From: a phage | Sequence record: PX994957.1 | Direction: 5' to 3' (one strand) | Length of the DNA: 64,000 nucleotides | Shown here: one piece after another, positions 6,926 through 46,694 of the stretch | How positions within the stretch are numbered: the stretch's first letter is position 1 | How the letters are laid out: each line of letters begins with the position of its first letter | Translations under genes and position numbers: made by a program | Notes under the pieces: model-generated | Databases searched by the model: none | What the model was told of the DNA's origin: nothing | Seen by the model: the letters and a program-made list of their open reading frames with translations, nothing else

Positions 6926-8104
6926 TTAAAAATATTTTTTAAAACTCATCATAACTTTATCATCAACATCATTATCAATCTGTGCTACAAGGTAAGATGA
7001 CAGTTCTACTTCTTGCGGCGCGGATTGAACATTATCAGAATTAAGGTATTCACGAATCCAAGGATATGGATGTTTAACCGGAGCATCGGTAATTGGGCAT
7101 GGAAGACCACACTGTTTCATACGAGATACAGTTAAGTAATCAATAAAGCTCCACATGCTATTTGTATTTAATCCAGGAACATCGCCATCTTTAAATAAAT
7201 GAACTGCCCAATCTTTTTCTTGGCGGTTAACTTCCATGAAAATATCAACTGCTTCTTGTTCACACTCTTGAGCAATTTTAACCCATTCATCACCATCAGT
7301 GCCAAGTTGGAGCTGACGAATAATATACTGGGTGCCTTTAAGGTGGAGTTGTTCGTCTCGAGCAATGAATTTCATAATCTTCGCATTACCTTCCATGATT
7401 TCCATATTTTTATGGAAGTTGAAAGTACATGCAAAGGATACATAAAAACGAATAGCTTCCAGGGCATTGATAACATGAAGGCAGAGATAAAGCGACTTCA
7501 TCAATGCATATTTACATTCTTCCACATGCATAAGACTATTTGAATATGCATCTAAATCATATTCATTTTCGGAAAAACATTTAAAAATTTCTTTTGCATT
7601 TTCCCATTCGCGCGTCTTAACCAGAACATCATCATAATAACGACCAATAGATTCAGCACGTTTCATGATAGCTTTATCTAATACAATCTCATCAAATACC
7701 TTTGACGGATCAGTATAAAGATTTCGCATAATATGAGTGTATGAACGACTGTGAATAGTTTCACTAAAAGTCCATGTAGCAACCCATGTATCAAGACTTG
7801 GGTCTGAAATTAACGACATAAGTACAGCAGACGGTGCACGACCCTGAATGCTATCTAGAAGTGATTGATACTTCAGGTTATTAGTAAAAATATCTTGCTG
7901 ATATTGAGGAAGCTTGTTAAATTGCGCAGCATCCATCATTAAGTTTACTTCTTCAGGACGCCAGAAAAATGACAACTGCTTTTCGGTTAAATCTTCAAAA
8001 ACTTTATGACGTTGAATATCATAACGCGCAATACCAAGACCTGAACCAAAAAACATAGGTTCTTTTAAAACATCAACTGGATTTGTATTAAAAACTGTGC
8101 TCAT
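6926..8104 (-). CDS. nrdB: ribonucleotide reductase small subunit (aerobic), uninterrupted
   Basis: 392 aa continuous ORF; R2 family; T4 synteny. Confidence 0.92.
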   Translation of the reverse strand: MSTVFNTNPVDVLKEPMFFGSGLGIARYDIQRHKVFEDLTEKQLSFFWRPEEVNLMMDAAQFNKLPQYQQDIFTNNLKYQSLLDSIQGRAPSAVLMSLISDPSLDTWVATWTFSETIHSRSYTHIMRNLYTDPSKVFDEIVLDKAIMKRAESIGRYYDDVLVKTREWENAKEIFKCFSENEYDLDAYSNSLMHVEECKYALMKSLYLCLHVINALEAIRFYVSFACTFNFHKNMEIMEGNAKIMKFIARDEQLHLKGTQYIIRQLQLGTDGDEWVKIAQECEQEAVDIFMEVNRQEKDWAVHLFKDGDVPGLNTNSMWSFIDYLTVSRMKQCGLPCPITDAPVKHPYPWIREYLNSDNVQSAPQEVELSSYLVAQIDNDVDDKVMMSFKKYF

Positions 8105-13812: not shown

Positions 13813-14192
13813 TACTTTTTGAAAGTTTTTCGCAAAAGTTCAATGATTTCGTCTACATTGTTTTCATCTACAATGCAGTGAATTTTTGTTACGCCAGAAA
13901 CCGGGTCTTTGACTTCATCTTTTTCAGAAGTCGGTTCTTTATACTCACGAAAACAATGAAATTCGTCTTCGCAAATTTCTAAAAGTCTATCTTTGAGGTA
14001 AAAATGTTTTCCATTTGCGCATTCAATGTGTTTTACTGCTTTATATCCATTAGCGACGGAAACTTCTTTAACTTCAAACCATCCGCCATTCTCTCGAATG
14101 GCTTTAACTATTGATGAATTAGAACGTGGGCTATAATTAATAAATGTATCAATAAGTCTTGGAACAAGTTCATACTTTTTACCGGTATACAT
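13812..14192 (-). CDS. hypothetical protein, 126 aa
   Basis: ORF track. Confidence 0.55.
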   Translation of the reverse strand: MYTGKKYELVPRLIDTFINYSPRSNSSIVKAIRENGGWFEVKEVSVANGYKAVKHIECANGKHFYLKDRLLEICEDEFHCFREYKEPTSEKDEVKDPVSGVTKIHCIVDENNVDEIIELLRKTFKK

Positions 14193-14236
14193 TACGGTTT
14201 CCTCATTTTAACGGGGATGTAATAGCCCCTTGATAA

Positions 14237-42246: not shown

Positions 42247-42516
42247 TTATTTAAAACGAATAGTTGAATCCTTAAAGAACAACCCAGAACATACTGTTCC
42301 TTCTACTTTCTGCCCAGTAGGTCCAATAGCACGAAATCCAGTATGTTGGAAATCATTTTCAGAGCAACCGAACCAATTATATCCAGTGATTTCAATATTC
42401 GTAAAACCACTCGATGATAAAATTTTAGTTGCATTATCAGCATCAGTACATCCTACTAAAGATACTGCTAATACTAATGCTGCAATAGAACGATTAATAT
42501 ATTTCATAGTTTTCAC
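42247..42516 (-). CDS. predicted lipoprotein, 89 aa
   Basis: signal peptide with LVGC lipobox. Confidence 0.55.
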   Translation of the reverse strand: MKTMKYINRSIAALVLAVSLVGCTDADNATKILSSSGFTNIEITGYNWFGCSENDFQHTGFRAIGPTGQKVEGTVCSGLFFKDSTIRFK

Positions 42517-42893
42517 TTAAATTTAATGGCTTGAAGGAGACTAATAATTCTCAAACGGCTTCTTTCATCTTTAACTGTAAAAGAAAGAGGGTCGCCAGAT
42601 TTCATAGTGATAGTGCATTCAAAATCAAAATCTTCAGGAACTTCTTCGAAGAAGTCAAATTCTTCATCATAAATTAGAACTTCACTCCGCAGACTGTGAA
42701 GAATTTTTCCAGCATTTCTGCTAGTTGCTGTACTAATCATTGTAACATTATGACCTTTCATATCTTCAACGATAAATTCGCTTGTAGATATTACGGCATT
42801 AATAGAACCATTCCTATTACTAGCAGAAAGTAGATATTTCTTTTCTTCACCTTCGCGAACACGATATTTCTTACCGATTTTAAACATAATCAC
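42513..42893 (-). CDS. hypothetical protein, 126 aa (GTG or nearby ATG start)
   Basis: ORF track. Confidence 0.5.
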   Translation of the reverse strand: MIMFKIGKKYRVREGEEKKYLLSASNRNGSINAVISTSEFIVEDMKGHNVTMISTATSRNAGKILHSLRSEVLIYDEEFDFFEEVPEDFDFECTITMKSGDPLSFTVKDERSRLRIISLLQAIKFK

Positions 42894-43066
42894 CCTTTAA
42901 GTAAATCGTAAAAACCGCCATTCACATGCTTAGGAGCAGAAGGCCGACGAGTAGACAAACGATGACATTTAGGGCAAACATCATTTTCTCGTTCAGAAAT
43001 CTTTTTAATTTTTTCATATTCATGCCCGCAATCTTCGGATTGGCATTTATAATCATACATTGGCAT
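42890..43066 (-). CDS. zinc-ribbon mini-protein, 58 aa (CxxC ... CxxC)
   Basis: own translation MPMYDYKCQSEDCGHEYEKIKKISERENDVCPKCHRL... Confidence 0.5.
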   Translation of the reverse strand: MPMYDYKCQSEDCGHEYEKIKKISERENDVCPKCHRLSTRRPSAPKHVNGGFYDLLKG

Positions 43067-43068
43067 AA

Positions 43069-43494
43069 TTATTCCTTAAAGTGTGCTTTCAACATCTGAT
43101 ACAAAGACCATGCCTGTTCATTATTTTCAATAGTAACTTTCATGACCGGGAATTCTGTGAAATCTTCTATTTGTTCTTGCTCTTTCTCTTCCTGCTCTTG
43201 CTCTTCAGCTGCCTGGTATGGATTTTCCACTTCATCAAAGAACACAGCTTCACTCGTTGAAAGCCAGATAAAATCTTCATCCAAAATATCTTTACCAGAA
43301 GATAACGCCAATTTTCCACTAGATGTCACAAGTTTAGTAGGACGACCAAGATAGTCAATATCTGTAACTCTAAAAGGTTCCATACCAAGACGTCGTGCAT
43401 AAATTCCGTTTTCAGTATGGTCCTTGATAAAATCTTCTTGAGCTTGTTTATTTTTAAATTGATACCATTTATTAACTTCAAATTTAATAGCCAT
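43069..43494 (-). CDS. hypothetical acidic protein, 141 aa (size and position compatible with T4 goF)
   Basis: ORF track frame with start at MAIKFEV. Confidence 0.5.
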
Positions 43495-43709
43495 TAATAA
43501 GTTTCCTTCCAATAAGTTGTACCATCTTCAGTAATTTCGCGAAACACACCATAAATTGGTTGTTTATCACCAACTTTTTCGTACACATAAACCGAAGTCA
43601 AGTGAGTAAACTTATTAGTATGTTCCTTTTGAACTACTACAAGATTTGGATCAAATAATACATCTTCAAATTCGTCATTAGTGCAATTCTGAACAATTTT
43701 ACGTTTCAT
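43494..43709 (-). CDS. hypothetical protein, 71 aa
   Basis: ORF track. Confidence 0.5.
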
Positions 43710-43722
43710 TACAATTTCCTCA

Positions 43723-44004
43723 TTAATTGAACAGTGGAGCGATGCGTTTCAGAAGAGTAGCAGCACCTTTAGCGAATTTTACATCATGAAAAACAGTTTC
43801 TTCTTCCGTTACAACACGAGCTTTAATGTTTTCACAATCCCAATTTTTGCGAACAATCTTCAAAAGCTGCAGTAAATCTTTACATTCAGCAATATCGATA
43901 ACACATCCACGAGAATCTTCCATTATTGCACGATAACCGTAAGCCATACCATAATCGTTGAAAGATTGCTCGATGATAATTAAGTTTTCCATTTTATTCT
44001 CCAA
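43723..44004 (-). CDS. hypothetical protein, 93 aa
   Basis: ORF track; promoter-like leader box upstream. Confidence 0.55.
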   Translation of the reverse strand: MENKMENLIIIEQSFNDYGMAYGYRAIMEDSRGCVIDIAECKDLLQLLKIVRKNWDCENIKARVVTEEETVFHDVKFAKGAATLLKRIAPLFN

Positions 44005-44088
44005 GTTATTTTCTGTATCAGTAGTTGATATTGATATAGTACCATAATCAACTACTGATGTATATAGTTTTATGAAAAAATTTAAACT

Positions 44089-44586
44089 TTATGCACAGCG
44101 AGCTTTGCTATAGTGTTTAATCCAGCTTTCAGGAATGACTTTGTATGTTCCTAAAAATACCGCGTTGTACAGCTTAACACCGTCTTCTACCCACTGATCG
44201 GTAATGTATGCGCACATAGCACGAGTACGGTGTTTTTGAACAACCCCTTCCTCATCTTCAGTAAATTCGAATTCATAAGGAGCAACGAACTTAATAGCCT
44301 GACCGAGTTTCCACTTAAAGTATACACCTACATGCGAAGTATCAATCGTTTCAATTCCTTTAGCAGGAACAGCTTTCAAAAACGCAGATTCAAGAAATTT
44401 CGCACGAACATAGCCAAACTGAGGTTTAGACTTTCCATCTTTAGGAATGATACGCACTTTTACTTCAGAATCTTCATCTTTAACGCCGTGTTTAAGCTGA
44501 ATGCTTACAATTTCGACCAATTTTCCTGCTGCTTTAGAACGGGATTTATCAGATACACGAGCAATTTCACCAATATTAATAATCAT
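44089..44586 (-). CDS. hypothetical protein, 165 aa; shares a C-terminal module with ORF 44663..45202
   Basis: ORF track; shared motif ITDQWVEDGVKLYNAVF. Confidence 0.6.
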   Translation of the reverse strand: MIINIGEIARVSDKSRSKAAGKLVEIVSIQLKHGVKDEDSEVKVRIIPKDGKSKPQFGYVRAKFLESAFLKAVPAKGIETIDTSHVGVYFKWKLGQAIKFVAPYEFEFTEDEEGVVQKHRTRAMCAYITDQWVEDGVKLYNAVFLGTYKVIPESWIKHYSKARCA

Positions 44587-44630
44587 AGTTATCTCTCACT
44601 TGTTAAAAAGATTTTATACTCCACAGGACC

Positions 44631-44660
44631 ATTATACTCTGGTCCCAAGAGTTTGTAAAC
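44631..44660 (-). promoter_or_regulatory. sigma70-type early promoter with GGACC palindrome around -10
   Basis: minus strand GTTTAC-N18-TATAAT. Confidence 0.55.
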
Positions 44661-44662
44661 TA

Positions 44663-45202
44663 TTAATTCAAAATAGCTACCACTGCACTACGAGGTACTA
44701 CGCTAAAATCACCTGCATGAACAACGTTCAGAAGTTCAACACCATCTTCAATCCATTGGTCTGTTACCCAACCACAGACCGAAATAAATGGAGTCTTGAT
44801 AGCTACCGCACGAGTTAAAAGGTCAGTAGGATCGCATTCTTGAAAGAGGATGAACTCTGCTTCAAAGACTATAGTTTTAATTACTTCATCATTATCTAAG
44901 CGATGTGCTCGAATCACGTAAGCTTTATTTTTATCATACCAGTTACTTTTTGAAAAGCTTTTAACCACAAACTCACCTTCACCAAAAACACTAGTCAATG
45001 CTTTATAACCCAAATTTAGTTCAGTTGTTTTAATTTCAGTTTCAACTAGTTTGTAGGTTTTGCCGATTTCAATAGCGGTAGTCATAGTAGGTTCCTTAAT
45101 TTCCAGTGGTTTAACAGGGCATACATAAGTGCTTACAACATCAAAATCAATCAGTTTAGCTACCGGATTTGGTATGTATTCAGGATTATAATTAAATTTC
45201 AT
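44663..45202 (-). CDS. hypothetical protein, 179 aa; paralogue of ORF 44089..44586 in the C-terminal region
   Basis: ORF track; shared motif VTDQWIEDGVELLNVV. Confidence 0.6.
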   Translation of the reverse strand: MKFNYNPEYIPNPVAKLIDFDVVSTYVCPVKPLEIKEPTMTTAIEIGKTYKLVETEIKTTELNLGYKALTSVFGEGEFVVKSFSKSNWYDKNKAYVIRAHRLDNDEVIKTIVFEAEFILFQECDPTDLLTRAVAIKTPFISVCGWVTDQWIEDGVELLNVVHAGDFSVVPRSAVVAILN

Positions 45203-45204
45203 AA

Positions 45205-45705
45205 TTATCTCATTTCAATAAAATCTACAAGTTCAGCATGGGATTTACGGAACATTACTTGATGCCCACCAATAATAACTTGGTCATCTGGTACTTCGTA
45301 TACAGCAAGATAAAATCCTTTCGAAGATAATTCTTCACGCTCTTCTCGTGTGAACCATCTCATCATATCATATTCGCTAGCAAAAGCAAAATGATAAAGA
45401 GCTATAAACCATCCGGGAATATGATATTCTACTCCAACATAATCTTTCTTGAACTTAGTATTAATTACGATATTAGCATTTTTAACTAATAGTTTATCTT
45501 CGTGTGGTAAAGGAATTCTTTTATTATTATCGCTATGATGCATAAAATTAGGTCTGTCATAACCTACGTGTAATAGCCACTCTTCGCTCCATGAATCTAT
45601 TATACTCCTGTACGGCGTTATTTGAACACAAAGATTTCGACGTATTGTTATAGCATCTTCATAATCAAGAATACTAAACGATGATTCAACACGATAAATT
45701 TTCAT
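45205..45705 (-). CDS. hypothetical protein, about 166 aa (start MKIYRVESS with GAGGA RBS)
   Basis: ORF track frame; the upstream ATG would lie 5' of the promoter-predicted transcript start. Confidence 0.5.
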   Translation of the reverse strand: MKIYRVESSFSILDYEDAITIRRNLCVQITPYRSIIDSWSEEWLLHVGYDRPNFMHHSDNNKRIPLPHEDKLLVKNANIVINTKFKKDYVGVEYHIPGWFIALYHFAFASEYDMMRWFTREEREELSSKGFYLAVYEVPDDQVIIGGHQVMFRKSHAELVDFIEMR

Positions 45706-45730
45706 TTTATTATCCTCAGTAGCTATGGTG

Positions 45731-45762
45731 TTATAATACCACAACTAACCGAGGAAGTAAAC
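45731..45762 (-). promoter_or_regulatory. sigma70-type early promoter
   Basis: minus strand GTTTAC-N18-TATTATAAC. Confidence 0.5.
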
Positions 45763-45768
45763 AACTTT

Positions 45769-46452
45769 TTATCGTTTTGTTGGAAGAGATAGAGGATCGC
45801 ATTCTTCCTCTGATGGAGCGTCTTCAAGACCCATAGCATACCGCAAAGCATACTTCATCATCAGGATGTCTTTCGCACAGTCATGAATAGAATCATGTGC
45901 AACGAATCCATCTAAAGTTCCCTTTGGAAGAGGACAAGTGGTCATATCACGAACAAGTAGAAGTGCTTCAATTCTGGTACGAATATCACGCTGATTCCAG
46001 AATTTACACGGTTCTAACTTAAATGTATCAAGCTCATTCTCGGAAACGCCATTAAGACGTTGAATATCACGAATGAGATCGACTAAAATTGGAAAATCAA
46101 ACGACATTCCACGGCACCAACCCTGAGATTTCCAAGGATCGATATTATGCGCATTGATGTAATCATTGAATTTTGCAATACCATCAATAGTGCTTACATC
46201 TTCATCTGACGGTGCAATATTTTTTCGAGCTTCAGGGGATTGATTCTTCCACCATTCGATAGTGCTTTTAGTAAAAAGACGATGTCCTTTTTGGCTTTTT
46301 AAATCAAATTTGATTTTAATGCCACGTGAAACTAATTCATCGAATGTTTCAACGACTTCTGGATTAGGGTCAAAAGCAATTACAGCTAAATCAATAACAG
46401 CTGCCTTTTCGCCGCTTCCCATTGTTTCAAAATCTATAATAAAATCAAACAT
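45769..46452 (-). CDS. dexA: exonuclease A (DEDDh 3'-5' exonuclease)
   Basis: 227 aa; N-terminal DFETMG exonuclease motif. Confidence 0.85.
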   Translation of the reverse strand: MFDFIIDFETMGSGEKAAVIDLAVIAFDPNPEVVETFDELVSRGIKIKFDLKSQKGHRLFTKSTIEWWKNQSPEARKNIAPSDEDVSTIDGIAKFNDYINAHNIDPWKSQGWCRGMSFDFPILVDLIRDIQRLNGVSENELDTFKLEPCKFWNQRDIRTRIEALLLVRDMTTCPLPKGTLDGFVAHDSIHDCAKDILMMKYALRYAMGLEDAPSEEECDPLSLPTKR

Positions 46453-46694
46453 TAAATTTTCCTTGCTAAATCGCGAATTTGACCTACAGTATAGTCTTGA
46501 ATATAAACTTTATTAATAGGCTCATCAATAAATTTTGCAATAGATTCAATGTCTTTTTGTATCTCTTCAAGACTGTATACTATCTTTGAAGCTTTTTCGC
46601 GAATAGTAATATTTTCAGGACCCGGATTTTCTTCAATGACAGCTTTAACATTTGTCATAAGAGATTTAAACTGACACCAACTTAATTCAATCAT
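46452..46694 (-). CDS. hypothetical protein, 80 aa
   Basis: ORF track. Confidence 0.5.
   Translation of the reverse strand: MIELSWCQFKSLMTNVKAVIEENPGPENITIREKASKIVYSLEEIQKDIESIAKFIDEPINKVYIQDYTVGQIRDLARKI

Follow-up and report, generated by a model that had tools for sequence, protein, structure and literature searches.

A small C-terminal module shared by MotB and a long-form MotB.1-like protein of a T4-like phage

Two neighbouring phage genes that end in closely related segments and begin with quite different ones raise the question of what the genes are, whether their tails have a common origin, and what such a tail might do behind two different heads. The case considered here lies in a 64-kb stretch of phage DNA that was analysed as a whole (PX994957.1; the window), in which a first-pass annotation had delimited two early genes with a duplicated C-terminal domain. 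Both open reading frames are indeed present on the minus strand, at 44089..44586 (165 aa) and 44663..45202 (179 aa). The region 43000-46500 showed 100% DNA identity to Escherichia phage vB_EcoM-G157lw and 94-99% identity to many other Tequatrovirus records; judged by its sequence, the source genome of the window is a Tequatrovirus (T4-like) phage. The minus strand carries every gene in this part of the window, in the order topoisomerase gene 39, small ORFs, a goF-like gene, cef, a 93-aa ORF, the two ORFs of interest, a motB.2-like ORF (45205-45744, minus strand, adjoining the second ORF), dexA (45769..46452, minus strand), three small ORFs and dda, which agrees with the T4 order cef, motB, motB.1, motB.2, dexA, dexA.1, dexA.2, dda. 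The pair is almost certainly motB together with a long form of motB.1, and the early character that had been proposed for it holds for the T4 counterparts of both genes, which are early genes.

Patterson-West et al. 2021 reported that MotB and MotB.1 have a C-terminal domain (CTD) in common and differ in their N-terminal domains (NTDs), that motB.1 lies directly upstream of motB, that one gene is possibly a duplicate of the other, and that both genes are found in 40 other phages (PMC7827196). The MotB/MotB.1 relation, the different NTDs and the duplication hypothesis are thus already known (PMC7827196); what is added here is the distribution of the module, its three architecture classes including hybrids, its charge, and an extra G in the T4 reference.

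The assignment of the first ORF to MotB rests on Pfam, PHROG and synteny. The protein matched Pfam PF17613 (motB) over its full length (E 9.9e-98, 325 bits, residues 1-163 against model positions 1-160 of 162; the gathering cut-off is 25 bits) and PHROG 1671 (MotB-like) with an E-value of 1.5e-75, and the position of the gene relative to cef and dexA is identical in T4 and in the window. T4 MotB is 90% identical to it, belongs to the same length class, sits at the same locus and has the same combination of a KOW-like head and a C-terminal barrel, which makes the two proteins orthologues; they differ in length (162 aa in T4 against 165 aa) and by a few substitutions in the middle region, and otherwise in nothing substantial. 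The AF2 model of the window protein (mean pLDDT 82) consists of an N-terminal barrel at residues 1-67, a disordered linker at 70-83 and an all-beta C-terminal domain at 97-159. The N-terminal KOW/SH3-like barrel (residues 1-68; 44383..44586, minus strand) is basic, with a net charge of +5 and a pI of 9.8, and carries the family motif VSDKSRSKAAG. The shared C-terminal module, of the 'KLYN' subtype, covers residues 122-158 (44113..44223, minus strand) according to BLASTP, hhalign and AF2. Upstream of motB, a 76-nt gap almost identical in sequence to that of T4 contains a putative sigma-70-like promoter, TTTACA-17-TATAAT (44631..44659, minus strand), which matched the consensus at 11 of 12 positions and was the top-scoring site of the region in a consensus scan; this is the sort of site that would be expected for a T4 early promoter.

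T4 MotB is an abundant early protein that binds DNA tightly without sequence specificity and is toxic in E. coli; it doubles the burst size, and H-NS and StpA co-purify with it only when DNA is present (PMC6070864, PMC7827196). Given the 90% identity, we infer that non-specific DNA binding, toxicity and co-purification with H-NS/StpA carry over to the window protein.

The second ORF has a domain in common with MotB, and we rejected it as a MotB orthologue. Its match to PF17613 was only partial (34.3 bits, solely residues 141-174 against model positions 120-153), PHROG 1671 matched it solely in the tail (residues 124-177, E 1.5e-16), and the KOW head motif VSxxSRSKxAG is absent from it. PHROG 2333 covered the protein from end to end (E 1.5e-82, residues 1-179 against profile positions 1-210), and the gene occupies the slot of T4 motB.1, directly upstream of motB and between motB and motB.2; on these grounds it is annotated as a motB.1-like gene encoding a long-form MotB.1. 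There are 120 close full-length relatives, sized 176-183 aa. Both the window protein and T4 MotB.1 contain DPTDLL and an ELLNVVH-type module and stand in the same published relation to MotB. With DPTDLL followed by an ELLNVVH-type barrel, the CTD of the 179-aa protein is closer to that of MotB.1 than to that of MotB, and its tail is almost identical to the last 29 residues of T4 MotB.1, including the part that is frameshifted in T4. The differences lie further upstream: BLASTP aligned T4 MotB.1 with the 179-aa protein at 52% identity over residues 111-151 only, with no alignment before residue 111, and the window protein, unlike T4 MotB.1 (143 aa when intact and 119 aa as annotated in the reference), begins with a disordered stretch of 41 residues that includes a DxDVxxTY motif. 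MotB.1-like proteins have been described with at least two NTD types (categories 2 and 4), in addition to a 29-aa RB69 peptide (category 3) (PMC7827196), and the window protein probably falls in the other-NTD category of that study.

In its AF2 model (mean pLDDT 69), the MotB.1-like protein is disordered at residues 1-41, has an alpha/beta domain at 49-123 and ends in a beta unit at 132-178 (pLDDT about 75-84). In the same model the putative LSm-like alpha/beta head (44834..45079, minus strand) is made up of a strand at 49-52, a helix at 60-73, strands at 77-85, 95-101 and 106-111, and a helix at 114-119 (pLDDT 68-83). It is followed by the DPTDLL motif (residues 124-129; 44816..44833, minus strand), a hallmark of the MotB.1-type tail, and then by the module, here of the 'ELLNVVH' subtype (residues 140-176; 44675..44785, minus strand).

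Kim et al. 2025 predicted that the MotB.1 head (residues 1-82) has an LSm-like/SH3-like fold common to GoF and Frd.2 (PMC12152347). The window head, too, is small and of alpha/beta type and closes with a hydrophobic-acidic strand (IVFEAEFILFQE), as in GoF and in a 126-aa GoF-like ORF at 42513..42893 (minus strand), which the head HMM found as a paralogue with an E-value of 1e-4; the two share an IGKxYxL start and the hydrophobic-acidic strand YDEEFDFFEEV. The occurrence of head paralogues in the window fits a multi-copy GoF/MotB.1/Frd.2 LSm-like family, in which the kinship concerns the N-terminal head only: GoF and Frd.2 lack a MotB-type tail, no third module match being found in the window. 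A weak, possible further head paralogue was seen at 13815..14207 (minus strand; head HMM E 2.5).

The tails of the two proteins can be compared more directly. The peptides that the first-pass annotation had quoted as closely related, AYITDQWVEDGVKLYNAVFLGTYKVIPESW at residues 126-155 of MotB and GWVTDQWIEDGVELLNVVHAGDFSVVPRSA at residues 144-173 of the MotB.1-like protein, are present, and their relationship was confirmed by three comparisons: BLASTP of the pair gave a single significant segment with 16/32 identical and 24/32 positive positions (E 5e-11), the tail of the second protein reached 34.3 bits with PF17613, as mentioned above, and hhalign of an 80-sequence MotB alignment against a 50-sequence alignment of the second family gave a probability of 98% and an E-value of 1.2e-13 over 37 columns. 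The likeness covers only about 37 residues, as it might if it were due to chance or to a convergent short motif instead of homology. Such an origin is nevertheless extremely improbable in view of the BLASTP and hhalign E-values, a Pfam score above the gathering threshold, the identical secondary-structure register of the two tails and the next match in the window, at E 0.37; the alignment is short yet highly significant, and extends beyond the motif itself. Homology is restricted to the last ~40-55 codons of both genes, with a module length of ~37 aa. A longer homology, reaching into the N-terminal halves, was rejected since hhalign aligned 37 columns only; no similarity of the N-terminal halves was detectable by this comparison of both family alignments, and their earlier description as unrelated stands.

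When the module profile was searched against the six-frame translation of the 64-kb window, exactly two copies were found (E 1e-28 and 1e-26) and no further ones. The DNA of the two modules is ~48% identical and synonymous sites differ throughout, which points to an old duplication whose copies were kept similar at the protein level; recent gene conversion was rejected as the cause of the likeness on account of this low DNA identity. The residues D, W, E, L, N, V and V are invariant across both subfamilies, and G, Q, G and G nearly so. On the sequence evidence, a small C-terminal beta-barrel was duplicated long ago and gave rise to the tails of motB and motB.1. The duplicated domain in adjacent genes that had been proposed is thus upheld by BLASTP, Pfam, PHROG, hhalign and AF2, and matches the account of T4 MotB/MotB.1 given by Patterson-West et al. 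2021.

Structure prediction for the shared domain led to the same result. AF2 modelled the MotB tail (pLDDT 86-97) as strands at residues 115-134, 137-144, 147-152 and 156-159, with a 3-10 turn at 153-155, and the tail of the MotB.1-like protein as strands at 141-152, 155-162, 165-170 and 174-178, with a 3-10 turn at 171-173. Compared as the secondary-structure register of two models, the tails coincide residue for residue with an offset of 18, MotB strands 137-144, 147-152 and 156-159 and turn 153-155 corresponding to 155-162, 165-170, 174-178 and 171-173 of the MotB.1-like protein. SH3-like small barrels are characterised by short strands and a 3-10 turn ahead of the last strand. By this prediction the tail would supply strands beta2 to beta5 of a small SH3/Tudor-like barrel, beta5 being preceded by the 3-10 turn; for such a barrel, the description as an 'effector or binding domain' in the first-pass annotation would be plausible. 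Known SH3-like adaptor barrels (Tudor, KOW of NusG/Spt5, PWWP, chromo and the PcrA C-terminal Tudor) have 6-23% sequence identity to the module, a likeness of fold class only that is no evidence of membership or of common ligands. A sequence-profile search of PDB chains gave no match for either family (best E 0.86, plus an unrelated kinase at E 0.0034).

The CTD has previously been read as an OB-fold resembling cold-shock DNA-binding domains (PMC7827196). If the module itself were a nucleic-acid-binding domain of this type, its duplication would have provided two proteins with different regulatory heads that bind DNA or RNA alike. We did not find structural similarity of the CTD to the OB-fold or cold-shock domain, and the charge of the module points elsewhere. 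MotB residues 1-96 have a net charge of +7 and the module of MotB a net charge of 0; in the MotB.1-like protein, with a pI of 4.9 as a whole, the module has a net charge of -4 and a pI of 4.1. Being neutral to acidic, it is likelier to be a protein-binding or oligomerisation module than a DNA-binding part, and we consider nucleic-acid binding by the module rather unlikely.

We tentatively favour a different reading, to which we give a fair chance, if somewhat short of an even one: the heads contact nucleic acid, and the common tail is a protein-binding module through which the two proteins self-associate or dock to a partner that they share, probably a basic one. The non-specific DNA binding of MotB would then most likely reside in the basic residues 1-96, and MotB.1 would possibly bind RNA or another ligand through its LSm-like head, nucleic-acid contact being carried by the N-terminal domains. 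The D-x-W-x-E spacing on one strand would put the D, W and E side chains on one face, and a neutral-to-acidic barrel with this invariant face could serve as a protein-protein module in both proteins. It may self-associate, giving homo- or hetero-oligomers of MotB and MotB.1; alternatively, it may bring the two to a single basic partner from the host or the phage, such as H-NS/StpA-DNA complexes. The charge distribution and the predicted fold together offer a testable division of labour, with heads for nucleic acid and a tail for protein.

How widely the module occurs was examined with a 48-position profile built from both subfamilies and searched against 1.84 billion cluster representatives. 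The matches at E<=1e-3 came to 33 proteins, of which 25 scored E<1e-8 and about 27 genuinely carry the module; those traced to records or named belong to T4-like phages. The six proteins that matched in several stretches are unrelated repeat proteins and were rejected as module carriers. Four of these (P0262, P0263, P0268 and P0269; 532-862 aa) have fibre-like GYATEQWVExKGYLTEHQ repeats with 12-14 positions matched per repeat, a resemblance that we judged to be due to chance; their scores came from the GYITDQWVEDG segment of the profile. The proteins matched in a single stretch span 43-251 aa, and in 23 of the 27 the match ends six residues or less from the C-terminus, the others (P0252, P0258, P0260 and P0265) ending 7-15 residues before it. 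By tblastn the module was found in 768 phage records, and those examined are Straboviridae (Tequatrovirus, Mosigvirus and Kanagawavirus). In a BFVD fold search, the significant matches were all MotB-family proteins of T4-like phages.

A motif table of these proteins separated three architectures. The MotB type has the KOW head motif VSxxSRSKxAG and an 'xLYN' tail. The MotB.1 type is without the KOW motif and often has D-x-D-V-x-x-M-Y, followed by DPTDLL and an 'ELLNVV' tail; its heads are of the T4 type (P0247, 144 aa) or the window type (P0041, 180 aa), or two heads occur in tandem (P0244, 251 aa; P0246, 246 aa). Hybrids, with seven representatives, combine a KOW head with D-x-D-V-x-x-M-Y, DPTDLL and an ELLN tail. 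DPTDLL was present in every MotB.1-type and hybrid representative but P0243, and missing from MotB-type proteins. In the Klebsiella phage vB_KM5a1-KLB31 (Kanagawavirus; L004 3001-3456), a single 151-aa hybrid gene lies between the ORF at the motB.2 position and cef, filling the slot that is held by motB and motB.1 in Tequatroviruses; it may have arisen by fusion, or may reflect the state before duplication. The 'diversified partners' of the first-pass annotation are therefore real at the level of fused domains, these being a KOW-like barrel, one or two LSm-like domains, or a KOW head joined to a MotB.1 tail. By all indications, the module closes the protein and was recombined with different heads within T4-like phages. 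The hybrids show that the tail cassette is exchangeable, and they can serve as natural domain-swap controls.

An exchangeable C-terminal piece could also be a structural cap or stability element that has no partner of its own, kept for good folding and passed between adjacent early genes by illegitimate recombination. The C-terminal position of the module behind several heads, including that of a 43-aa deletion product in which a MotB.2 start is joined to the module tail, is in keeping with this, as is the dispensability of both motB and motB.1 under laboratory conditions; deletion of motB.1 had no laboratory phenotype (PMC12152347). However, residues of a surface type (D, Q, W, E, D/E, G and N) have been under strong purifying selection across both lineages despite the ~48% DNA identity, and the KLYN and ELLN subtypes stay distinct across several genera, which suggests specific, separate constraints. 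We consider a mere cap quite unlikely. In the 43-aa product itself (P0261, metagenomic), residues 1-17 encoded by the motB.2-like ORF (MKIYRVESSFSILDYED) are fused to the module tail (GVELLNVVHAGDFSVVPRSAVVAILN); compared with window positions 45205-45744 and 44663-44760, it is apparently a natural deletion of most of motB.2 and motB.1.

The long form of MotB.1 differs from the T4 protein also by its N-terminal extension (residues 1-41; 45080..45202, minus strand), which is predicted to be disordered (pLDDT 34-36) and contains the motif DFDVVSTY..PVKPLEIKE at residues 19-37. Its reading frame is kept in relatives, with amino-acid substitutions. The core of the motif, D-x-D-[VILT]-x-x-[MTA]-Y (45125-45148, residues 19-26), usually followed by ..P-x-K-P-L, was found in 11 of the 29 tabulated proteins (10 representatives and the window's own protein) and in one of 1189 six-frame fragments of the window. 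Some proteins have it at the N-terminus, others between DPTDLL and the preceding KOW or LSm-like head, and in the disordered N-terminus it resembles a short linear interaction motif of a portable kind. Within the extension, the Met40 codon (window position 45085) has a strong AAGGA Shine-Dalgarno sequence ahead of it and is equivalent to the start of T4 MotB.1, so that a 140-aa product could be made alongside the one of 179 aa; in one database entry, P0110, the annotation gives the shorter form. A promoter-like site, ATGAGA-17-TATAAT (10/12; 45185-45213), overlaps the annotated start of the 179-aa ORF.

The intact MotB.1 tail is obscured in the T4 reference. In NC_000866.4 (~7142-7650; L001 2143-2651), motB.1 contains one extra G (TGGATTGGAAGATGG vs TGGATTGAAGATGG; the window counterpart is 44663-44800), which truncates the annotated protein inside the module, at 119 aa and with the ending ...TDQWIGRWR*; the next frame still contains the other 28 codons (EDGVELLNVVHAGEYSVVPRSAVVAILN) intact. 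The extra G occurs in AF158101 and NC_000866 only, and 13 other records, eleven of T4 or T4T together with RB55 and RB59, are one base shorter; MT984581 annotates a 143-aa MotB.1 that includes the full module. The extra base in the T4 reference is probably a sequencing error. Kim et al. 2025, whose study deals with the MotB.1 head and is almost silent on the tail, had the gene synthesised from reference coordinates and quoted a monomer of 13.8 kDa; the expressed protein was almost wholly insoluble (PMC12152347). Since 13.8 kDa is the size of the 119-aa frame, this construct was probably without most of the module. As the reference form stops inside the module, functional tests would better be made with the 143-aa form of T4 or the 179-aa form of the window phage.

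One may speculate beyond the reading favoured above that the barrel is a dedicated oligomerisation or docking module that couples DNA-bound MotB, with H-NS/StpA, to MotB.1 or sends both proteins to one host target, that it was overlooked because the T4 reference, and apparently the MotB.1 construct, are truncated inside it, and that D-x-D-V-x-x-M/T-Y...P-x-K-P-L, in disordered regions of MotB.1-type and hybrid proteins, is a further docking site; taken as a whole, we regard this as unlikely. The side observations are of housekeeping use to T4 researchers, and the pair itself changes nothing.

In RB69 (NC_004928.1; L005 1231-1727), motB.1 is annotated as a 132-aa ORF directly followed by a 29-aa ORF and then by two copies of motB. 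The simplest reading is that the 29-aa ORF is a motB.1 tail separated from its gene by a split like that in the T4 reference, which would account for the 'Category 3' peptide described by Patterson-West et al. 2021.
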